In this document: one piece after another, positions 33,351 through 52,002 of the stretch
Position numbering within the stretch: position 1 is the first letter of the stretch
Layout of the letters: each line of letters starts with the position of its first letter
Position numbers and translations under genes: made by a program
The notes under the pieces: generated by a model
Told to the model about the DNA's origin: nothing
What the model saw: the letters and a program-made list of their open reading frames with translations, nothing else
Database searches by the model: none
Source: an uncultured Chthonomonadaceae bacterium
Lineage (GTDB): Bacteria > Armatimonadota > Chthonomonadetes > Chthonomonadales > Chthonomonadaceae
Direction: 5' to 3'
DNA length: 64,000 nt
Assembly (NCBI GenBank): GCA_963817895.1
Contig: CAWFQB010000014.1
Location: 448,001-512,000, forward strand

Positions 33351-34292
33351 ATGGAACACAGGCAAGACACCGAAACGCGCAGCTTTCTCTGGCAAAAACC
33401 ACAACTTGGCCTGGTGTGCATCACGACTACGGAACGGGTACGCTTTCGGACGATTACGCGAACGCGCCTGCTGCAATTTCCCGCGCATGAACGCTCGTTT
33501 TTGCTGTACCATCTGTATCAGGACAATTTGAACCGGCTGGCGGGCGCGCTGGAGTTTTGCGCCCAAAACAACATCGGCATGTACCGGCTGTCCTCCAACC
33601 TGCTGCCCTTTGCCGACGATCCCACATACGAGGACGCGCTGCTTGCCTGTTCGGAAACCCTTGCCGCGATTGGCGCGCGGGCGGATGCGTTACACATCCG
33701 CCTGCTGGCGCACCCGGAACAATTTATCGTGCTGAGTTCCGACAGTCCGCAAGTGGTAGCGAACAGCATCCGTTCCCTGCGCGGACACGCCCGTATTCTG
33801 GACATGATGAACCAGCCGCGCTCACACGCCTGCCCGCTGATTCTGCACGGCGGCAAAGGCAACCGGGCGGACGCCCTTGTTCGGACGATTGACACACTCG
33901 ACGAAACAATGCGGGCGCGGCTGATCCTTGAAAACGATGAGGATGCGTACAGCAGCCGGGAAATCTTGACCGTTTGCCGACGCGCGGGAGTTCCGATGGT
34001 CTTCGACGCGCACCATCATGTGTGCCATGAGAAACTCTCCAGTTATGAAGACGCAAGCGTGATAGAGATGTTCTGGGCGGCGCGGGAAACGTGGCCCCTC
34101 CCACAATGGCAAATTACGCATATCTCCAATGGGCGCGCGTTTTTCGCTGACACCCGCCACAGCGACCTCGTAACGCAAATACCCTCCGTATTCCGCTACG
34201 CGCCGTGGATAGAAGTGGAAGCCAAAGCCAAAGAGCAGGCCATCGCCCTGCTTCAAGCCCGCTGGCAAAGCAGGCTGCCAACAGCATTGTAG
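33351..34292 (+). CDS. uvsE: UV damage repair endonuclease
   Basis: LGLVC, YRLSSNLLP, RLLAHPEQF, ILHGG, RLILENDE, VFDAHHH, EVEAKAKE. Confidence 0.9.
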   Translation: MEHRQDTETRSFLWQKPQLGLVCITTTERVRFRTITRTRLLQFPAHERSFLLYHLYQDNLNRLAGALEFCAQNNIGMYRLSSNLLPFADDPTYEDALLACSETLAAIGARADALHIRLLAHPEQFIVLSSDSPQVVANSIRSLRGHARILDMMNQPRSHACPLILHGGKGNRADALVRTIDTLDETMRARLILENDEDAYSSREILTVCRRAGVPMVFDAHHHVCHEKLSSYEDASVIEMFWAARETWPLPQWQITHISNGRAFFADTRHSDLVTQIPSVFRYAPWIEVEAKAKEQAIALLQARWQSRLPTAL

Positions 34293-34385
34293 GGGCGCTG
34301 CTTGCCGCGCCCTCTTTCGCGAGGGGTTCAGCCCTTGATTGCGAAATTAAGCGATTGAGGAGGGTTCAGCAAGCAGAACCCCTAC
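34289..34385. repeat. REPIN (inverted GTAG-type REP pair) overlapping the uvsE stop
   Basis: gtaggggcgctgcttgccgcgccct ... agggttcagcaagcagaacccctac. Confidence 0.8.
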
Positions 34386-34429
34386 GATGTATTCTTTTCC
34401 ACGAGATTACAATTTATTTGCGCAAAGGG

Positions 34430-34459
34430 TTGACAGCTGCGCAGTGGCAACGGTATACT
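34430..34459 (+). promoter_or_regulatory. Sigma70-type promoter of the arg cluster
   Basis: TTGACA-N18-TATACT. Confidence 0.7.
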
Positions 34460-34490
34460 GCTATTATCTTTTGAAGGATATGATGAATTT

Positions 34491-34559
34491 ATGTTAGCAT
34501 ACAACATAAACAGTTCTTGTTCGGCATCCAGCCGTCGCCGTCAGCGTACCGGTTTCTAA
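34491..34559 (+). CDS. Putative arginine leader peptide MLAYNINSSCSASSRRRQRTGF
   Basis: 22-codon uORF after AAGGA; CGT CGC CGT CAG CGT at 34533..34547; lies directly upstream of argC. Confidence 0.75.
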   Translation: MLAYNINSSCSASSRRRQRTGF

Positions 34560-34602
34560 GCCCACGCTGCGCGGCGCAAGTCGTTTTGCTTCGCAATTGA
34601 AG

Positions 34603-34647
34603 GTCGTGGGCCAATCCGAGGACGGAGGCTTGCGGCTTTTTTGTTTT
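34603..34647 (+). terminator. Attenuator terminator in the arg leader
   Basis: gtcgtgggcc pairs with ggcttgcggc (with G-U pairs), inner tccg/cgga stem, then TTTTTTGTTTT. Confidence 0.7.
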
Positions 34648-34712
34648 GTGCTTACCAGCCGCCGGTCACACTGCACCGCGCGGCTTTTATATTGAGTCTG
34701 GAAGGTGCTGTT

Positions 34713-35774
34713 ATGATTGATGTAGGAGTTGTGGGGGCGTCAGGGTATGGCGGCGGGGAATTGCTGCGCCTGCTGCTGCGGCATCCCGATGTGCAGGTGA
34801 CAGCCGCCGTATCGGAAACGTATGCGGGCAAGCCGTTGTCTGCGGCGTTTCCCGGCCTGACGAATACCCGCGCAGATCAACTGCGATTTGAAAGTTATGG
34901 CGACGGCAGCCGTATCGCGCAATGCGACGTGGTGTTTCTGGCGCAGGAAAACACCAAAGCCATGCAGACCGCGCCCCATCTGATTGAGGCCGGGTGCAAA
35001 ATCGTGGATTTGTCCGCTGATTTCCGGTTTCGCAGACACAGACACATACGCGCAGTGGTATGGCATGGCACACGCCTGTCCGCGCCTCAATGCCGAGGCC
35101 GTATACGGGATGCCGGAACTGAACAAAGAGGCCATTCGCAAGGCGCGGATTGTCGGGCAATCCCGGCTGCCACGCCACTGCGGGAATCCTCGCCCTCGCG
35201 CCCCTTATGAAGAACAATCTGATTGATGTAAACAGTATCATCATTGATCTCCAAAACCGGCGTATCGGGCGCGGGACGGGCGAAATTCAGCCTCGACTAC
35301 CACTTTCCTGAAATCAATGAGAGCGTGAGCGCGTACAAAGTTGCGGGGACGCACCGCCACACGCCCGAAATCGAAATGGCGCTTCAGCCGCTTACCAATT
35401 CGCCAACGCCGCTTGCCGTGACGTTCACGCCACATCTGATTCCCATGACGCGCGGCATACTGGCAACCTGCTATGCCACCTGAAAACAACCGGCAGGCGT
35501 AGCCGAATTGAATCAACTGTATACCGGCAATTTTATGCCGACGCGCCCTTTGTCGCCGTTGTGGAAGACCATTTGCCTGCCACAAAACACACGCTCGGCA
35601 CTAACGTTTGCCATCTTGCCGTCAGCGTAGACAACCGTAACAACCGCGTCACCGATTATTTCCTGTCTCGACAACCTGATTAAAGGCGCGGCGGGTCAGG
35701 CCATTCAGAACATGAACCTGATGTGCGGTCTGGAAGAAACCGCAGGATTGGAAGGGGGAGGGTTATGGCCGTAA
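34713..35774 (+). CDS. argC: N-acetyl-gamma-glutamyl-phosphate reductase (frameshifted)
   Basis: [72 protein letters not shown]. Confidence 0.95.
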
Positions 35775-36404
35775 TGATAGAAAAGGAGAAAAGGAGAAGA
35801 GGAGAAGAGGAGACAGGAGGAAATAATGAAGTAAATCTCCCCTCATCCCTCATCCCTCATCCCTCATCCCTACCTGTCTTCGTCCGACTTTACCGCCCCG
35901 AAGACTACCCTACTGTTCTGGCTTTGTGGGAAGAAGCGAAACTGCGCCCGTATCTGGAACACGGAATTAGAACGGCTGATGGGTTCGGGAGGCGGCGCGT
36001 TGGTTGCTGTCGCGCCGCAGACGAAAGACGCGGGCGGGCTTTCAGAAGATCAAGCTGGAGAGTTCAGGAACGAGCAAGTTGTGGGCGTTATTTTGTGGTC
36101 GCACAATGGCAGCGTGGGCATTTTGTGGCGATTGGCGGTTGCGGAACATCAGCGAGGGCGGGGCATTGCCACAAAACTTTTGGACAGGGCGGAGCAGGAC
36201 ATTTACGAGGCGGGATTGAGCGGCGTAACCCTGCTCACCCGCGTCACAAACACGGTCGCCAAAAGTATGTATACCAAACGCGGCTACAAACATAACAGCC
36301 CTCTGGAATTTTGGGGCAAAAAACTGTCCGAACCGGGAACAGAAATACCGAACACCGAGAACTCTCAACCCTCAACTTCGAGCGAGGAGCAAACATCGTG
36401 CTGA
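35774..36404 (+). CDS. GNAT acetyltransferase (frameshifted; N-terminus partly repeat-derived)
   Basis: VRLYRPEDY..VLALW; LAVAEHQRGRGIATKLL; N..AKSMYTKRGY. Confidence 0.8.
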
Positions 36405-37620
36405 CGCAGTGGAAGGATGTGGAAGCGGGCGTTACGTACCCGGAAGGCTTTGTCGCGTCGGCGGTGCGCTGCGGCCTGAAAACGGCGGGCGCGGATTTGG
36501 CGTTGCTCGTCAGCGACACGGCGGCGACCGTTGCCGGCGTGTTCACCACCAACCGGGTGCAGGCCGCGTGTGTGCAGTATTCCCGGCGCGTAACCCGCAA
36601 CGGAACCGCTCGCGCTATCCTTATCAATGCGGGCAACGCCAACGCCTGCAACGGCGAACAGGGCGACCACGACAACCGGACACTGGCCGAATGGGTATCG
36701 CGTCACCTCAATATTCCGCCGGATTCGGTACTCACCGCGTCAACGGGAATCATCGGGCATCTGATGCCGATGGATAAACTGCAAGCCGGCATTGCCGACG
36801 CGGTTGCCAATCTGGACCGGGACGAGGACACGGATGAAGCCGTTGCCCGCGCCATTATGACGACGGATACCGTTCCCAAATTTCGCGCCTGCGACGCGGA
36901 CAGCGACCAATGGGTTGCGCCCATTCGGTTCGGCGGCATGTGCAAGGGCGCGGGCATGATCGCGCCCAACATGGCGACCATGCTTGCCTTTCTCACGACG
37001 GATGCCCGCCTGCCCGCGCCCCTGCTTGCAGGAAGCCCTGAAACGCGCCGTTGCCGCCTCGTTCAACAGCGTCACCATTGACGGCGATACCAGTACCAAT
37101 GACATGGGCCTGCTGCTGGCATCCGGTATGGGCGAGGGCGTGATCTCCGTACCCGGCCCCGCCTTTGAAGATTTTGTCGAAGCCTTAACCCGCCTGTGCA
37201 TCGAGCTTGCCAAAGCCATTGCCCGCGACGGCGAGGGCGCAACCAAACTGGCGGAAATTATCGTTCGCGGCGCGTTGACGGAAGCCGGGGCGCATACGAT
37301 TGCGAAAACCATTGCCGAATCGCCGCTCGTGAAAACTGCCCTGTTCGGCAACGATCCGAACTGGGGCCGGTTGCTCATGGCGGCAGGACGCGCCGGGCGT
37401 TCCCTTCGACCCGACCAAAATAGACGTGCAAATCGGCCCGCATCTTGTCTGTTCGCAGGGCGGCAGCGTGGAATTCGACCGCGATGGGGCGCATGATTAT
37501 CTGACACAAAAAGACGTGCAAATCGTGCTGGACTTGAATCAGGGCGACGAACTCGCCACCGTCTGGACGTGCGATTACAGCTACGATTACATCAAAATCA
37601 ACGCAGAGTACCACACGTAG
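36398..37620 (+). CDS. argJ: Bifunctional ornithine acetyltransferase / N-acetylglutamate synthase (frameshifted)
   Basis: AGVFTTN, NAGNANA, KGAGMIAPNMATML, DGDTSTND, RDGEGATK, DPNWGR, YIKINAEYHT. Confidence 0.95.
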
Positions 37621-37711
37621 GCAAAGGATGAAGGATGAAGGATGAAGGATGAGTAAAATATGCATCGACATTCATCATTCATCACTCATCATTTGCTTTT
37701 TGGTCAACACC

Positions 37712-38524
37712 ATGCAATTACGCTCATTTGGCTATCGTACCGATCTGATTTTCGCGCGCTTTGAAGGCCGCATTACGGATAAAGGCGACTATTTGGTAAT
37801 CCAAACGCCCTCCAATCCGACCTTTTACTGGGGCAACTTTCTGCTGTTCGCGCATCCGCCGCAACCGGGGGATTATGAACGGTGGACAAAACTATTCGCG
37901 CAGGAGATAGGATCGCCCGAACAGGTGGGACATATTGCTCTTGCATGGGATAATACAGCAGGCGAAACCGGCGAGGTCGCGCCCTTTCTGGCAGCGGGCT
38001 TCGAGTTAGATACCGCTGTCGCGCTGACCGCCCGGCAAGTACAACTGCCGCCGAAGTTCAACCCCGATGTACAGGTACGCGCGCTTGAGTCGGAGGAGGA
38101 TTGGGAAACCGCCCTGCAAAACCAGATTGTACACAGGGAGCCGAAGTACAGTCTGGAAGGCTACACGACATTTCGGCGCGCGAAAATGGCATCTTATCGC
38201 GCGATGGTCGCGCAGGGGTTGGGGCATTGGTTCGGCGCGTTTGTGAATGATGAAATGGCAGGCGATTTAGGGCTGTTTGTGGACAGTACCCAGCGCGGCA
38301 TTGGCCGCTTCCAATTCGTCACCACCTACCCGGATTTTCGCAGGCAGGGAGTTTGCTCTACCCTTGTTTACAAGGCCGCCCAATTCGGCCTTACTTCGAT
38401 GGGTCTTGAAACACTGGTGATGATAGCGGACGAAGACTACTTTGCCGCCCGTATCTACGAGTCGGTAGGATTTCAGCCCGCCGAACGCCTGACAAATCTG
38501 CAATGGGTTGCAAACACAAAATGA
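37712..38524 (+). CDS. GNAT acetyltransferase
   Basis: TPSNPTFYWGNFL; RFQFVTTYPDFRRQGVCSTLV; ARIYESVGF. Confidence 0.85.
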   Translation: MQLRSFGYRTDLIFARFEGRITDKGDYLVIQTPSNPTFYWGNFLLFAHPPQPGDYERWTKLFAQEIGSPEQVGHIALAWDNTAGETGEVAPFLAAGFELDTAVALTARQVQLPPKFNPDVQVRALESEEDWETALQNQIVHREPKYSLEGYTTFRRAKMASYRAMVAQGLGHWFGAFVNDEMAGDLGLFVDSTQRGIGRFQFVTTYPDFRRQGVCSTLVYKAAQFGLTSMGLETLVMIADEDYFAARIYESVGFQPAERLTNLQWVANTK

Positions 38525-38997
38525 ACTTAAAACAACCAATTCATCTGCGCGTGATGAGTCGTCCGGCATTGGGGCAAATGGCTGCGGACGAGCCGTTTAT
38601 CCTGATTTCCGTCACCGATCCCGGTTCCGATGAGGCGTTGGTTGCGGACACGCCGCTGTGTCGCGGAGTCCTGCGGCTGCAATTCGACGATGCCGAGTAC
38701 AAAGGACAAACCCCACGCGGCAAAACCCTCATCAGCAAACAGGACGCCGACGCCATACTCGCGCTCATACACCGGCATGTCATGGAAGCGCAGGAGCCGG
38801 TACATACGATCATTTGCCAGTGCGAAATGGGGCGCAGCCGCTCGGCAGGCATCGCCGCTGCCCTGTCCAAAATTCTGACAGGCGAAGACGCCCACTTTTT
38901 CAGCGACTACTACCCGAATCGTTGGGTATACCAAACCATTTTAGACCAACACGCCCAACATCAGGAAGCAACAACCTCTTCCCTGACTCGGAAGTAA
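38521..38997 (+). CDS. Protein-tyrosine/dual-specificity phosphatase-like protein
   Basis: ISVTDP, LRLQFDD, CX5R motif CEMGRSRSAGIA, PNRWVY. Confidence 0.8.
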   Translation: MNLKQPIHLRVMSRPALGQMAADEPFILISVTDPGSDEALVADTPLCRGVLRLQFDDAEYKGQTPRGKTLISKQDADAILALIHRHVMEAQEPVHTIICQCEMGRSRSAGIAAALSKILTGEDAHFFSDYYPNRWVYQTILDQHAQHQEATTSSLTRK

Positions 38998-39016
38998 TCA
39001 AACTTCAGACTTCCTG

Positions 39017-39119
39017 AGAGCCTATTCCAATAGGCCGGGTACAGAGAACGTACCCGTCTGAGTAGCCTGCGGCTAAACGTCCTTCGGACGTAAATGCTTT
39101 TCCTACTGGGACAGGCTCT
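39017..39119. mobile_element. About 103-bp MITE with 18-bp imperfect TIRs and internal hairpins (copy 1)
   Basis: agagcctattccaatagg ... cctactgggacaggctct; second copy at 52003..52106. Confidence 0.8.
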
Positions 39120-39148
39120 AAGCGCGACCAGCCCCCATACAACCGCCT

Positions 39149-39196
39149 CCCCTCTCCTGGCGCGTTGCGCGGCAAGGAGAGGGGCCGGGGGTGAGG
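39149..39196. repeat. CCCCTCTCC...GGAGAGGGG...GGTGAGG palindromic repeat
   Basis: Related copies at about 44131..44169 and, interrupted, at 59572..59782. Confidence 0.7.
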
Positions 39197-39279
39197 TCAA
39201 GCATCCCGCCCAAATTTCCTGTATAATAAGAGCAGGGACTTGCAGGCAGACTGCATAACTATCAACAGGTACTCACATA

Positions 39280-40146
39280 ATGCTACAAATTGATTCCAGC
39301 GCTCATGCGTCCGTACTGATTGAAGCCCTGCCCTATCTGCGGCAGTTTTACGGCAAAACCATTGTCGTCAAGTACGGCGGCAACGCCATGATTGACGAAA
39401 CGCTCAAAGCGCAGGTGATGCAGGATATTGCCCTGCTGCATTACGTGGGGATACGGCCTATTCTGGTACACGGCGGCGGGCCGGAAATCAGCGCCATGAT
39501 GAAGCAGATGGGACATGAACCCGCTTTCGTCGGCGGTCTGCGCGTGACCGACGCCGAAACTATGGAAATCGTCGAAATGGTGCTGGCAGGCAAAACCAAC
39601 AAAGGTATCGTATCCCTTCTCAACAAACAGGGCGCAAAGGCCGTCGGCTTGAGCGGCAAAGACGCCAATTTAATACAAGCCTATAAAATGGAATCGCCGC
39701 AGGGTGATCTGGGCTATGTCGGTGAAGTGGCAAAAGTAAACGCGGAACTGCTCACCCTTCTTGGCGAACAGGGCTATATTCCCGTAATCTCGTCCGTCGC
39801 CATCGGACCCGACGGTGAAAGCTACAATGTCAACGCCGACCATGTTGCGGGACACATTGCCGCAGCCGTGCAAGCCGCCAAACTCGTGATTTTAACGGAT
39901 GTGGAGGGATTGTACGCCGATTACAGCGACAAGACAAGCCTGATTTCCGAAATGGACGCAGAACAGGCCGATAGCATGATTGCCAGCGGCGCGGCGGAAC
40001 GGGGCATGATTCCCAAACTGCAAGCTTGTATTGTGGCTGTAGAGGGCGGCGTACCCCGCGCCCACCTGATAGACGGACGCCTGCCACACGCCCTGCTCAT
40101 CGAAATCTTTACGGACGCGGGTATCGGCACAATGGTACACGCTTAG
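39280..40146 (+). CDS. argB: Acetylglutamate kinase
   Basis: VVKYGGNAM, LVHGGGPEI, GLRVTD, YNVNAD, GMIPK, HALLIEIFTDAGIGT. Confidence 0.97.
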   Translation: MLQIDSSAHASVLIEALPYLRQFYGKTIVVKYGGNAMIDETLKAQVMQDIALLHYVGIRPILVHGGGPEISAMMKQMGHEPAFVGGLRVTDAETMEIVEMVLAGKTNKGIVSLLNKQGAKAVGLSGKDANLIQAYKMESPQGDLGYVGEVAKVNAELLTLLGEQGYIPVISSVAIGPDGESYNVNADHVAGHIAAAVQAAKLVILTDVEGLYADYSDKTSLISEMDAEQADSMIASGAAERGMIPKLQACIVAVEGGVPRAHLIDGRLPHALLIEIFTDAGIGTMVHA

Positions 40147-40261
40147 GTTAGGTTGTTAGTTGTTAGGTTATCAGGTTGTTAGGTTGAGGAAAAAAGATAT
40201 ACATTACTAACCTAAAGACTTAACAACCTAACAACCTGCCTCTTGGAGTATTACAAAAAAT

Positions 40262-41053
40262 ATGGCACGAAAAAATACAATCGCGCGTGATTTTTTAGCG
40301 GCGTGTCTGACGTTTGCGCTGCTCACGGGCAGGGCTTCAACACTGAGCCGCGCCGATTCCCGGCAGAACGTGGATGAGTACGCCTATGCCGTTTCCGACG
40401 CGCCTGCGCGTGACGGCCATAACGATACCTACGCGGACGCGCTCACGAATGAACTGCACTGGGGACATTTTCCCATTCGTGTCGCGTTTACCAACAGCAT
40501 GAGCAGCGACCGCGAAAAACTCGATGAGATTGCGCAGCGCGGTTTCGCTCAGTGGGTCAAGGCGACGCAGGGCGAAGTAAAGTACGAAGTGGTTTCAACG
40601 CCCTCCCGCGCCGATGTGACCGTCACGTATGAGGTTGTTCCTGCCCGTCCGTTCACGGGCGGCAAACTTGGCACAACGGGTTTCAATTACAACAAAACGC
40701 GCCGCCAGTTGTTTCATGCGGATATGCACCTGAATGTATGGGAAGGCATGACGCGCCGCGACCTGGAACGCTTTGAAAACACTGCTGCGCACGAGTTCGG
40801 CCACGCGCTCGGCATCAACGGCCACAGCCCCAACCCCGATGACTTGATGTACTTCACATCATCGCAATCGGTGGACCGCGCGCGACCTGAACACGCTGGC
40901 CTGCATAGACGGCTTCAAACGCCAAAAGAAAGACATACCGCTCTAACTGTCGACCGGATTCAACTAAATCAACAGGATGCGCAAAACGCAATCAAGAAAT
41001 CCTGCCAAAACACGCTCATAAACAGATGGAGACGCCATGATACTCGACCTTGA
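40262..41053 (+). CDS. Matrixin/metzincin-like secreted metalloprotease (C-terminus possibly frameshifted)
   Basis: Signal peptide; HEFGHALGINGHS followed by Met-turn DLMY. Confidence 0.85.
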   Translation: MARKNTIARDFLAACLTFALLTGRASTLSRADSRQNVDEYAYAVSDAPARDGHNDTYADALTNELHWGHFPIRVAFTNSMSSDREKLDEIAQRGFAQWVKATQGEVKYEVVSTPSRADVTVTYEVVPARPFTGGKLGTTGFNYNKTRRQLFHADMHLNVWEGMTRRDLERFENTAAHEFGHALGINGHSPNPDDLMYFTSSQSVDRARPEHAGLHRRLQTPKERHTALTVDRIQLNQQDAQNAIKKSCQNTLINRWRRHDTRP

Positions 41054-42303
41054 AACCTACTCTTCCCACCTTCAACCCCCTTCCGCAGGCTATTGCATAC
41101 GCCCGAAGTGGACGCCGCGCACATCATGCAGACCGACAGCGAGTATGTGCTTGGCACGTATGCGCGTCAGCCGATTGTGTTTGTGCGCGGCGAGGGCGCG
41201 CGTTTGTGGGACAGCGAGGGGCGCGAGTATCTGGACTTTCTGGCGGGGATTGCCGTTGTGCAGGTGGGGCATTGCCATCCGCGCATTGCCGCACGCCATC
41301 GCAAATCAGGCGCAAACGCTGATGCAGGTCAGCAACCTGTACCACAACGCGCTGCAGGCCCCGCTTGCCAAACGCTTGTGCGAACTCGCGGGCATGGAAA
41401 AGGCGTTCTTCTGCAATTCCGGCGCGGAAGCGAACGAGGCCGCGCTGAAAATCGCCCGCAAATGGGGCAAAGCAGAAACGCGGCAGCGACTGCTTTGAGA
41501 TCATCACGTTTCAGGGTTCGTTTCACGGGCGCACGATGGGAACCGTGACCGCAACCGCGCAGCCCAAATACCAGACGCCATTCGCGCCGCTTGTGCCCGG
41601 CTTCCACTACGCGCCCCTCAACAACCTTCACGCGCTCGACGACCTTATCAGCGAAAAGACCTGCGCCGTAATGATTGAGCCGATACAGGGCGAGTCCGGC
41701 GTCAATGTCGCGTCCCCGGATTTTCTCAATGGCATCCGCGCCCTGTGCGACGAGGCCGAAGTGCTGCTTATCTTAGACGAAGTGCAGTGCGGCATGGGGC
41801 GAACGGGACGCTTCCTGGCCAGCCAGCTCGCGGGCGTTCAGGGCGATATTGTCACGCTTGCCAAAGGCATAGCCGACGGCTTTCCGATGGGCGCGTGTTT
41901 GACGCGGGGCGAAGCCGCGCATACGCTTGTTCCCGGCGATCACGGCAGCACGTTCGCGGGCCAGCCGCTCGCCTGCGCCGCCGCCCTCGCCACCTTAGAC
42001 GTTTTGGAAGACGAGAACCTGATGCAGCGCGCCGAGCAGACCGGGCAGTATTTCCGCAACGCCTTGAACCAACTTCGCGCCGATTTCCCCGCCCGCATCA
42101 CCGAGGTGCGCGGACACGGTCTGATGGTGGGCGTCCAGTTCGCGCAGCCGGAAGCGAAGACTTTGTATCAAGGTTTACTCAAGGCGGGCATCATCGCCAA
42201 CGCGACCGGCGACTTTGTTTTGCGCTTCGTTCCCCCGCTCATCGTCACAAACGACGACTGTGACCGCGTTGTAGACACGTTGCGCGACTTGCTGCAAGCG
42301 TAG
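41037..42303 (+). CDS. argD: Acetylornithine aminotransferase (frameshifted)
   Basis: YLDFLAGIAV..VGHCHP, FCNSGAEANEAA, EPIQGESG, DEVQCGMGRTG, TLAKG, HGSTFAG. Confidence 0.95.
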
Positions 42304-42326
42304 CCAGTTTGTGGAGGAGATTTTCC

Positions 42327-43097
42327 ATGACAACCACCCTTGAAAAACCGATTGTTCAACAGCCGACTGTGGAGACTTCGCAAACTGAATCGCCCTTACC
42401 TGAAACGTTGCTGTCTGACCCGTTGCGCTTTGAGGAGCCGAGGCGCCGATTATGGACTCGCGCCGATTACCATAAGGCAGGCGAACTCGGCTTTTTCGGC
42501 ATGGAGGAACGACTGGAACTAATCAATGGGGAGGTGTGGAAAAAAATGAGTCCACAAGGAGCGCCACATGCTTTCGGCGTCGGGGTGGTCGCCGAAGTAT
42601 TACGCGGAGCATTTCCAGCAGGTTTCCACATCCGTGAGGAAAAGCCGCTTGTTTTAACGGACCTGACGGAACCGATTCCGGATGTTATGGCGGTTCGAGG
42701 AACGCTGCGCCAAAATCCCGGATTTGCAACTTCCGCTAATGCGGTACTTGTTGTAGAAATATCGGCGTCATCGCTCAAATTCGATCAAAATTACAAAGCC
42801 GAAGCGTATGCCCGGTCTGGAATCCCCGACTATTGGGTGCTGAACCAACGCGCCCGCCAGTTGGAAGTGCGCCGCGAGCCGGGACTGCTTGGCGATGGAC
42901 AATGGGGCTACCGTTCCCTGCAAATAGTGCTTGCGGATGGGCAAATTTCCCCGCTTGCCGCGCCACAAATTGTCATCAAAGTTGTCGATCTGCTGCCTAC
43001 CCTGTCGCAAACTTCCTCGGAGGCAACATCAGACGACAGCGCAGCAAACACAGCCGATTTACAGCCCAATGTGTCAGACCCTCCGCAGAATGATTGA
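42327..43097 (+). CDS. Uma2 family endonuclease
   Basis: ELINGEV..MSP...H, PIPDV, LVVEISASS...D...K...YARSGIPDYWV. Confidence 0.9.
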   Translation: MTTTLEKPIVQQPTVETSQTESPLPETLLSDPLRFEEPRRRLWTRADYHKAGELGFFGMEERLELINGEVWKKMSPQGAPHAFGVGVVAEVLRGAFPAGFHIREEKPLVLTDLTEPIPDVMAVRGTLRQNPGFATSANAVLVVEISASSLKFDQNYKAEAYARSGIPDYWVLNQRARQLEVRREPGLLGDGQWGYRSLQIVLADGQISPLAAPQIVIKVVDLLPTLSQTSSEATSDDSAANTADLQPNVSDPPQND

Positions 43098-43108
43098 GAT
43101 AAAATCGC

Positions 43109-44090
43109 ATGGACGCCAACCAACTCCGACAATTAATTGAAGATAACGCCCACTCGTGGCGCAAGAAATCCGTTATCAGCCTGTTCGACTTTTCAACCGA
43201 ACAGATACGCGCCGCGCTCGACGTTGCGGCGGGGCTGAAACAGTACGACCTTGCCCGTGAGCGCAGCCTGTACTGGCAGTATCCGCGCACTCTCGCGCTG
43301 CTGTTTGAAAAACCCTCCCTGCGCACAAGGGTCAGTTTCGAGGCGGGCATGGCGCACCTGCACGGACAGGCCATTTACCTTGCGCCCGGTGACGTGGGAT
43401 TGGGAGCGAGGGAACCGGTTGCCGATGTGGCGGGCGCTCTCTCGCGGTGGGTAGACATCATCGCCGCCCGCGTGTTCAAGCACGAAACCGTTGAGGAACT
43501 GGCGCAGCATGGCACGATTCCCGTCATCAACGCGCTCAGTGACCGCGAACATCCCATACAGGCGTTTGCCGACCTGCTCACGCTTGCAGGAGCAGAAGGG
43601 GCCGCTCGGCAACAACCTGAAACTGGCGTATGTGGGCGACGGCAACAATGTTTTACACGCCCTTTTGCTCGCCTGCGCCAAAATGGGGGTAAACTTAAGC
43701 GCGGCCTGCCCTGCCGGTTACGAGCCGTCCGGCAATTATGTGCAGGAAGCCACCCGCATCGCGCAACAGACGGGCGCAAGCGTTGAGATTGTTGCCGACC
43801 CTGTTCAGGCTGTTCAAAACGCCGACGCCGTGTATACCGACGTGTGGGCCAGCATGGGACAGGAAGACGAAAAAGCTGCCCGGATGCAGATTTTCGCGCC
43901 CTACCAGATCAATACAACCCTGCTTTCCCACGCCAAACCGGATGTATCCGTTTTGCATTGCCTGCCCGCGCATCGCGGCGAAGAGGTTTCCGCCGATGTC
44001 ATGGACGCGCACAACACGGTTATTATGAATCAGGCGGAAAACCGGCTGCACACGCAGAAGGCGTTGCTGACGTTAATCTTAGGATTGTAA
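43109..44090 (+). CDS. argF: Ornithine carbamoyltransferase (frameshifted)
   Basis: FEKPSLRTRVSF, HPIQAFAD, YVGDGNN, YTDVWASMG, HCLPAHRGEE, QAENRLH. Confidence 0.95.
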
Positions 44091-44202
44091 GTAACTATTC
44101 AGCCCTATCTCGAAACTGATTTGAATAGTTCCCCTCTCCCAAACTTGGGAGAGGGGCTAGGGGTGAGGGCCTGAATAGTTACGATTGTAATAAGGAGTTT
44201 TC

Positions 44203-45529
44203 ATGCGTAAGATTGTCCTCGTATATTCGGGCGGGCTGGATACGTCCGTGTGTATTCCGCTGATGAAGGAAGAGTATGGCTTCGACCATGTGATTACGGT
44301 CACGGTAGACGTGGGGCAGGCGCGGGAAGACATCGCGCAGGCCGAGGAACGCGCCCGCCGCTTTGGAACCGAACACTATACGGTTGACGCCCGCGCTCTG
44401 TTCGTGGAGCATTTCTGCTGGCCTGCCGTCAAAGCGAACGGCGATTATCAGGGCTATCCGATTTCAACGTCTATCGCTCGCCCGCTCATCGCCCTGAAAG
44501 CCGTCGAAAAAGCGCAGGAGTTGGGCGCGACCGCGTTCGGGCATGGCTGCACCGGCAAGGGCAACGATCAATTCCGCATCGAATACATCATGCGGACGCT
44601 GATGCCGGATGTCGAAATCATCGCGCCCATGCGCGAAGGCCGCAAAATGCCGGATGGCAGCCGATCTCCCTGGACCCGCAGCGAAGAGATCGAATACGCT
44701 AACGAACACGGACTGGACATTTCACAAACCACAAGCAAAATCTGGAGCATTGACGAAAACCTGTGGGGGCGCAGCGTGGAGGGCGGGCGATTGGAAGAGC
44801 CGAATTATGCGCCCCCGGAAGAGATTTACCAGTGGACACGCGGCCTTAAAGACTGCCCGGACGAGGCGCGGGAACTCACCATAGGCTTTGAAAACGGCGT
44901 ACCCGTCGCGCTGGACGGCAAAAAGTACGCTCCCTTCGATCTGGTCGTGGAACTCAATAAAATCGCGGGCGAAAACGGCGTCGGGCGCGTGGACATCATG
45001 GAAGACCGGATGCTCGGCCTGAAAGTGCGCGAAAATTACGAGTGTCCCGCCGCCGTCGTGATTCTGGCCGCGCACCGCGCGCTCGAAGCCCTCGTATGCA
45101 CCCAATCGGAACTGAAGTTCAAGAAATCGGTAGACGCGGAATGGGGCGAAATGGCCTATAAGGGGCTGTGGTTCGACCCGCTGAAGGAAGACTTGGAAGC
45201 GTTCATCAACAAGGTACAGGAGCGCGTTACGGGAACCGTCAATCTGCGGCTGGCGAAGGGCAACGCCATCATCGTCGGGACGAGCGAGCGAATTGGCGCT
45301 GTACAACGAGGATTTAGCCAGTTTCGACAGCAAAACGTTCAATCAGGCCGATTCGCTCGGCATTGTCAAAAATTACGGGATGCAGTCCAAACTCTACTTC
45401 CAGTTGAAGTACCCGGCGGGAGCCTTGCTTGCCGGCAACATGGAACAAAAATTGCTCGGCAGCCAACCCACCGCCCATGAGCAGGCCGATGCGGGCGATG
45501 CGGGCGCGACGGGCGATTACAGCGGTTAA
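44203..45529 (+). CDS. argG: Argininosuccinate synthase (frameshift near 45285)
   Basis: YSGGLDTS, HGCTGKGNDQ, SIDENLWGRS, GVGRVD..EDR..GLKVRENYE. Confidence 0.96.
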
Positions 45530-51874: not shown

Positions 51875-52002
51875 CCCGCGCCGATACGCGAACAGCCTGC
51901 CGCTCCTTGTAGTTTAATGGCGCTGGCGCAGAAACACGTATTGCTGGCGTAAACAGGCGTTCCCGCCGCCCGCTATTTTCATCAGATTTACGGCCCCAGT
52001 TT

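Follow-up and report, generated by a model that had tools for sequence, protein, structure and literature searches.

A conserved Arg-rich leader upstream of argC in Armatimonadota, a probable leader-peptide attenuator of arginine biosynthesis

Introduction

Arginine synthesis is the standard case of control by the ArgR repressor, with T-box control taking its place in some Firmicutes. ArgR repression serves the same goal as the leader described here, in a genome in which no ArgR (PF01316) was found. T-boxes, like this leader as we understand it, read tRNA charging, end in a terminator and have the same regulatory goal, but they bind the tRNA directly and have no leader ORF. T-box control of arginine genes exists in other bacteria, and the same source, in its accessible portion, reports no RNA element for the arginine operons of Actinobacteria (PMC1262725). 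The attenuated operons listed for Escherichia coli and Salmonella are trp, his, leu, thr, ilvGMEDA, ilvBN as well as pheA, a list from which arginine is absent, and such attenuators are known to be biased in their control codons (PMC1183508). The main text of PMC2965389, as far as it is accessible, does not include arginine, and among the entries of its supplement are at least nine terminators, unannotated, that precede argC, argG or argJ in a small number of other bacteria. Among open full texts no leader-peptide attenuator of arginine biosynthesis was found; subscription surveys may hold a prior prediction.

Described small ORFs resemble the present leader in single respects. In Salmonella, orf34 upstream of speF, encoding SpeFL, likewise contains consecutive Arg codons, and pausing there at low arginine raises downstream expression; SpeFL differs, according to the accessible account, in having ornithine decarboxylase as its target, in acting by way of Rho and RNase G, in lacking an intrinsic terminator and in its conserved peptide core (PMC6386406). 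Staphylococcus aureus rbfL is a leader ORF that senses arginine limitation by its Arg codons, but these are the rare AGA and AGG, and the accessible part of the report describes repression of a biofilm regulator's translation by occlusion of its ribosome-binding site, with the opposite sign and no terminator (PMC13009471). The E. coli argL is a small ORF located 5' of an arginine-biosynthesis gene, argF; unlike the leader considered here, it overlaps argF and reduces its translation, and the accessible text describes neither a terminator/antiterminator nor an arginine response (bioRxiv 10.1101/511675).

The leader analysed here precedes argC in the window, a stretch of 64 000 nucleotides from an uncultured Chthonomonadaceae bacterium of the phylum Armatimonadota. 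It resembles the classical attenuators, as they are described in the accessible sources, in its promoter, its short ORF with end-product codons, its alternative 2:3 and 3:4 helices and, less uniformly, 1:2, its predicted intrinsic terminator and its synonymous-codon bias. It differs from the classical list in the amino acid, in its Armatimonadota host and in matching no Rfam leader, and from the classical attenuators in its second terminator and predicted second antiterminator and, in family f3, in a T tract that follows hairpin 5:6 rather than 3:4.

Organization of the locus

The features of the locus, with RNA segments numbered 1 to 6, are as follows.

34430..34459, + strand: sigma-70-type promoter TTGACA-N18-TATACT, 11 of 12 consensus positions
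34473..34478, + strand: SD-like GAAGGA, 12 nt 5' of the leader ATG (spacings of 10-14 nt occur in several homologues)
34491..34559, + strand: leader ORF MLAYNINSSCSASSRRRQRTGF*, 22 codons, with an in-frame ATG signal in homologues
34533..34547, + strand: control codons CGT CGC CGT CAG CGT, which are segment 1 of the protector stem
34560..34576, + strand: segment 2, with segment 1 (via 34564-34576) or segment 3 (via 34560-34568) as alternative partners
34603..34647, + strand: terminator 1, formed by segments 3 (34603-34612) and 4 (34627-34636), with T tract 34637-34647; -18.2 kcal/mol, conserved in the alignment A1 described below
34627..34666, + strand: predicted second antiterminator 4:5 (34627-34637 with 34657-34666), from folding and the own-partner test
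34657..34694, + strand: terminator-like hairpin 5:6 (34657-34685, -16.4 kcal/mol) with a T-rich tail and compensatory changes
34700..35771, + strand: SD GGAAGG (34700-34705) and argC, start 34713, frameshifted in the assembly
35852..45330, + strand: further same-strand genes after argC, namely GNAT, argJ, argB, probable argD, argF and argG

The -35 box TTGACA (34430-34435) and the -10 box TATACT (34454-34459) are separated by a spacer of 18 nt, and transcription is predicted to start at about 34466. An earlier note on this DNA had placed the promoter, an upstream ORF at 34491..34559 with four Arg in five codons and none elsewhere, and the argC start at 34713, and all of these coordinates hold: Arg occurs in the ORF only within the run at 34533-34547. 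A matching promoter pattern lies 5' of 35 of the 39 homologous leaders, and in the leaders of family f29 and in that of genome G014 the ATG is found 9 nt past the -10 box, so that these mRNAs are nearly leaderless. An out-of-frame micro-ORF, MMNLC* (34480-34497), is nearer to the SD-like GAAGGA than the leader ATG, which it overlaps, and may compete with the leader ORF for this motif. In the same-genus genome G002 an out-of-frame ATG lies 8 nt 5' of the leader ATG.

The run downstream of argC contains argB (39280-40146), a probable argD (41037-42303), argF (43109-44090) and argG (from 44203), with unrelated genes interspersed. While argJ, argB, argF, argG and the GNAT gene were assigned by NCBIfam, we take 41037-42303 to be argD from sequence features, as we do for the non-arg members of the run, presumably a second GNAT-like, a peptidase-like and a Uma2-like gene. 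The nearest ArgB in public databases, 93% identical, carries a Chthonomonadaceae label. No argH was seen up to position 52000 of the window. In argC, the GNAT gene, argJ, argD and argF, and towards the end of argG, the reading frame is shifted with respect to a close relative (34713-45480). A reading of the arg genes as pseudogenes was rejected: ilvB, elsewhere in the genome, is also broken by frameshifts and argC of the same genus is intact, which makes assembly error the likelier cause, and the frameshifts in the window are probably of this kind.

Two further observations concern the surroundings of the leader. Palindromic, GC-rich sequence occupies 34290-34385 of the window, after uvsE, and long imperfect inverted-repeat inserts separate leader and argC at loci L033, L002, L020 and L028; both look like small mobile repeats.

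Distribution and conservation

Taken alone, the Arg run of the window is only modestly improbable, at least four Arg in five codons of a 10-40-codon ORF being reached in 75 of 3000 dinucleotide shuffles, and it is therefore conservation that carries the case. Of the order's 61 genomes, 57 had their argC upstream region inspected; four had no usable argC start, and in three the upstream sequence was shorter than 200 nt. A motif search recovered a leader with an Arg run and the hairpins in 29 genomes, from which an alignment (A1) and a model (R1) were built. R1 gave exactly one match per genome in 34 of the 61 genomes: 25 of 36 in family f1 plus the genome of the window, 8 of 22 in f3 and 0 of 2 in f2. 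Five of the matches lay outside the training set, two before argC (G057 and G011) and three at contig ends (G012, G016 and G049). Of 151 genomes of the phylum 19 had an R1 match, seven of them in the order, and five strong ones were found in a separate family, f29, each directly before argC. Eight weak matches (E values from 1e-5 to 9e-3) were dropped, six of which look like generic terminators or chance and two of which are Trp-codon leaders. The leader was confirmed before argC in 36 of 39 cases, that is in every case with a visible next gene, at a distance of 953 nt in G017; the Arg-rich ORF and terminator that the earlier note had described from one sequence are conserved before argC in relatives, with 39 leaders in all.

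The distribution has limits. R1 matches are absent from 27 of the 61 genomes of the order, many of them near-complete and also without ArgR, so that the leader is not an obligatory substitute for ArgR, and other controls or none must operate in its many ArgR-less relatives without a leader. No homologous leader was found before argC in 26 genomes from other Armatimonadota families, and none of 17 Bacillota argC upstream regions scored. Seven of the 26 Armatimonadota regions were picked out by a permissive search for a uORF plus a terminator; none of these looks homologous or has an R1 match. Within the genome of the window there is no second copy of the leader, and its 369 strong promoters yielded 17 distinct uORF-plus-terminator leaders, among which only that of argC has a run of four in five of one residue.

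A few leaders stand apart from this set. About 410 nt before argC at locus L063 (Armatimonadia), a promoter, an ORF ending in ...GRARRS* and a terminator were observed, with no R1 match; this is possibly a divergent or independent Arg leader. The two weak R1 matches with Trp codons, near position 1500 of loci L151 (G140) and L155 (G122), precede trpE-like genes and comprise ORFs ending in ...KGWWWRS* and ...SSWCWP*, respectively, together with hairpins bearing the same GCCGTGGGC arm, two or three in tandem. They are candidate Armatimonadota trp attenuators sharing the RNA scaffold.

A small share of matches was also present in 22 sequencing runs, including one RNA library; the four that were examined all gave contigs of relatives. 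The 158-nt contig from the RNA library spans 34497-34614 and is informative on neither transcription nor ends. In unrelated metagenome contigs, the leader differs from the window at 2 of 146, 4 of 160 and 14 of 210 positions and pieces of argC coding sequence at 24 of 149, 29 of 228 and 17 of 102, the leader (compared over 34481-34690) being closer to the window than argC (34729-35300); the leader and argC pieces may come from different organisms.

No ArgR (PF01316) is present in the window, as the earlier note had stated, or in the genome, which is 81% complete. The search, which covered the PF01316 type of ArgR as distinct from the AraC-type ArgR of pseudomonads and recovered it in 9 of 14 control genomes, gave a match in one of the order's 61 genomes and in none of the 44 that are of high quality. 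This single match is found on a small contig, next to an additional, divergent argC. Two of the 151 genomes of the phylum contain ArgR, both from one family and near argC.

Alternative helices and ribosome geometry

Stem 1:2 comprises 12 bp with one bulge, stem 2:3 pairs 34560-34566 with 34605-34611 and extends to 9 bp, and hairpin 3:4 (34603-34636), with a predicted energy of -18.2 kcal/mol, is followed by T6-G-T4. A simple terminator scanner listed neither 3:4 nor 5:6, in the case of 3:4 probably because of a 2-nt bulge. When the leader of the window was folded, 1:2 was obtained with no ribosome, 2:3 with segment 1 masked and 3:4 with segment 2 masked.

Covariation among the 29 aligned leaders points to the same alternatives. 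The 2:3 helix is 95% paired, with compensatory changes in four of seven pairs, and none of 500 shuffles reaches its pairing and covariation scores; the OFF helices also exceed every shuffle (0 of 500) on both scores. In an own-partner test with one genome per genus, from which G008 and G029 were left out for want of a second hairpin, permuted partners did as well as the real ones in 1 of 5000 cases for 1:2, 0 of 5000 for 2:3, 8 of 5000 for 3:4 and 0 of 5000 for 5:6, values that overstate independence since the genomes are related. Five control pairings had no advantage over permuted partners.

The distance between the Arg codon preceding the E/Q codon and segment 2 is 19-21 nt in all 29 leaders. 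With a footprint of 13 nt, the geometry assuming 12-13 nt past the A site, a ribosome stalled on the control codons is predicted to free segment 2 and one at the stop codon to cover it: the probability of 2:3 exceeds 0.5 in 28 of 29 homologues in the stalled state and in 0 of 29 at run-off, the latter being partly built in, since segment 2 is masked. Folded free of any ribosome, 17 of 29 homologues favour 2:3 and 9 of 29 favour 1:2. At equilibrium the terminators win or tie in the full-length RNA (-43.1 against -43.0 kcal/mol in the window), and read-through must therefore rest on the order of folding, that is on kinetics.

The three stems proposed in the earlier note (1:2, 2:3 at 34560-34566/34605-34611 and 3:4 at 34603-34636 with its U-tract) all fold as described, and they behave as mutually exclusive, covarying helices. 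Its protector 1:2 folds in the window and covaries, but the ribosome-free fold is dominated by this stem only in the minority of homologues given above. Its four-segment, trp-like layout is incomplete: beyond it lie another terminator and, probably, another antiterminator.

The second hairpin

Hairpin 5:6, which the earlier note did not describe, is present in 27 of 29 leaders, with compensatory changes in seven of nine pairs. The 5' arm of this hairpin and segment 4 have complementary sequences. When 2:3 is held locked, the predicted fold of the window containing 4:5 reaches -43.0 kcal/mol against -43.1 kcal/mol for the terminated fold. Predicted folding places 4:5 in 20 of 29 homologues prior to the synthesis of segment 6, and in 16 of 29 it is displaced by 5:6 at equilibrium. 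Own-partner 4:5 pairing was better than permutations (p about 0.001; 36 leaders from 24 genera, omitting G008 and G029, which have no second hairpin, and G011, in which the first terminator is deleted), while across all genera the mirror control 3:6 gave p about 0.36 and the control 2:5 p about 0.03. Against 248 background terminator arms, 4:5 was among the best 5% in 12 of 27 leaders. By column counts 4:5 was not significant (58 of 500), nor was it within f1, where p was about 0.06, like the 0.08 of the 3:6 control.

The tails of the two hairpins differ among families. The median number of T per 8 nt is 6 in f1, 2.5 in f3 and 6 in f29 after 3:4, and 5, 6 and 6, respectively, after 5:6; genus g7 is without 5:6 and G011 without 3:4. 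This T content fits a terminator that has moved. In f3 a good T tract is within reach of the switch only via 4:5, the strongest point in favour of a relay, and we lean, by a small margin, towards the view that the 4:5 relay exists and that segment 4 blocks the second terminator.

A 5:6-like hairpin was also observed alone in the last 100 nt before argC at locus L003 (G022), where it comes directly after a promoter, and less clearly at L004 (G039) and L019 (G054); it may be a remnant or have a role of its own.

Proposed mechanism and alternatives

The leader is very probably an Arg-tRNA-sensing, ribosome-mediated transcription attenuator of the arg genes, judging from its sequence and modelled folds. 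This reading, already put forward in the earlier note, is supported by conservation before argC, helix covariation, footprint geometry and the near-absence of ArgR. With ample Arg-tRNA, the ribosome would reach the stop codon (34557-34559) and cover segment 2, which would allow terminator 3:4 and then hairpin 5:6 to form, ending transcription in the leader. Upon shortage of arginine, the ribosome would stall on the CGY codons, covering segment 1 and leaving segment 2 free, and 2:3 would form before segment 4 is made; segment 4, thus freed, would pair with segment 5, blocking the second terminator and letting RNA polymerase enter argC. We infer the translation of the leader, the stalling, the termination sites and the arginine response, and the folding states are predicted.

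In the leaders the conserved run takes the form RRR(R)(E/Q/A/V/D)R, or nearly so, and Arg is retained across synonymous changes: counting only the first six codons of each of the 39 runs, there are 165 Arg codons, namely 100 CGT, 55 CGC, 5 CGA, 4 AGG and 1 AGA. CGT makes up 61% of leader-run Arg codons; in the genome, over 2257 long ORFs taken from six frames, its share of Arg codons is about 14%. An ARAGORN scan found tRNA-Arg anticodons GCG (two), TCG (two), CCG and TCT and no ACG, and CGU is therefore presumably read by wobble; the pairing needs of the RNA could also favour CGT in the run. The scan additionally calls tRNAs for Pyl(CTA), SeC(TCA), Ile(TAT) and Cys(ACA), some of which are possibly products of assembly errors.

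A nascent peptide that senses free arginine or ornithine in the tunnel, in the manner of SpeFL, TnaC or the fungal AAP, might instead bring the ribosome to a halt; one site could be the stop codon over segment 2 under high arginine, and arrest there would likewise produce the OFF state. The conserved RRR(E/Q)R, in which E is mostly retained and is encoded by both GAG and GAA, speaks for such a peptide. We nevertheless consider this very improbable, as the 7-16 tunnel-filling residues before the run are unconserved (12 Arg per 397 residues), E gives way to Q, A, V or D, and the length of the tail after the run ranges between about 2 and 12 residues. A conserved peptide 5' of a fixed arrest site, the hallmark of SpeFL, TnaC and AAP, was found nowhere across the 39 leaders. 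Moreover, the E/Q change is matched by a change in segment 2 pairing, which points to a constraint on the RNA.

The R-X-R motif present in most leaders would be difficult to translate, and Arg-Leu-Arg motifs of leaders have been tied to antibiotic-induced stalling in the accessible part of PMC8632094, so that the leader might sense a general slowdown of translation or ribosome-targeting drugs rather than the supply of arginine. This is very improbable for an element that is found as a single copy in each genome and is located before argC wherever the next gene is visible (36 of 36 cases), and in whose run Lys never takes the place of Arg.

A switch of the T-box or riboswitch type, binding a ligand, tRNA or protein, with an incidental ORF and a CGY repeat kept for G-C and G-U pairing, would also tolerate T/C changes in the third position, and three other loci of the genome have T-box-like leaders. 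These lie at G000:C1:905963-906195, C3:645196-645483 and C3:25705-26097, just under the Rfam gathering score, and precede a presumed valS-like gene, ilvB and a presumed thrC-like gene; the genome may thus mix T-boxes with a leader-peptide attenuator. At argC itself the T-box model RF00230 has no match, and the 4227 Rfam models gave over 33800-35000 two chance-level matches (E values of 0.21 and 0.79), outside or overlapping the promoter. An incidental ORF is also difficult to reconcile with the reading frame: of 38 leaders with enough flanking sequence, 33 have an ATG 6-16 codons 5' of the Arg run and in open frame with it, the counts for the other two frames being 0 and 1; the remaining five start with GTG or TTG. 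Since AGG, AGA and CGA keep Arg yet break the CGY repeat, and the loops of the hairpins are unconserved, we regard a switch of this kind as very unlikely.

Elsewhere in the genome, no leader ORF was found directly upstream of trpE or hisG. A promoter, short ORFs and a strong terminator were observed from G000:C1:1083305 onward before a presumed leuS-like gene, possibly a further attenuator or an unrecognised T-box.

We give hardly any credence to a fixed leaky damper or RNA-stabilising structure indifferent to arginine, most plausible for 5:6, which stands alone before argC in G022, and compatible with the many relatives that do without the leader, because covarying, mutually exclusive helices and a fixed codon-to-hairpin distance would be unexpected in it.

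For attenuation by Arg-tRNA sensing, the broadest formulation is evenly balanced between true and false: that in at least three Armatimonadota families arginine biosynthesis is governed in the absence of a repressor, through a six-segment relay in which the stalled ribosome promotes 2:3 and segment 4 disarms the second terminator, that the working terminator has shifted, being the first hairpin only in g7, both in f1 and f29 and the second only in f3, and that the sensor is CGU read by wobble.

Conclusions

The leader upstream of argC is a real, conserved element with the testable properties of a classical leader-peptide attenuator: an Arg-enriched leader ORF before argC, mutually exclusive 2:3 and 3:4 helices and the corresponding geometry. 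New relative to the classical attenuators are the amino acid, the lineage and a probable two-terminator relay; the mechanism class itself is textbook attenuation, which limits the surprise. Should the 4:5 relay exist, a single ribosome would govern two terminators placed one after the other, repression should be tighter and a portable arginine sensor could result, the 280-nt leader being a compact cassette suited to reporter use. In a phylum nearly free of ArgR, a conserved Arg attenuator would explain how the pathway is regulated in part of the phylum.
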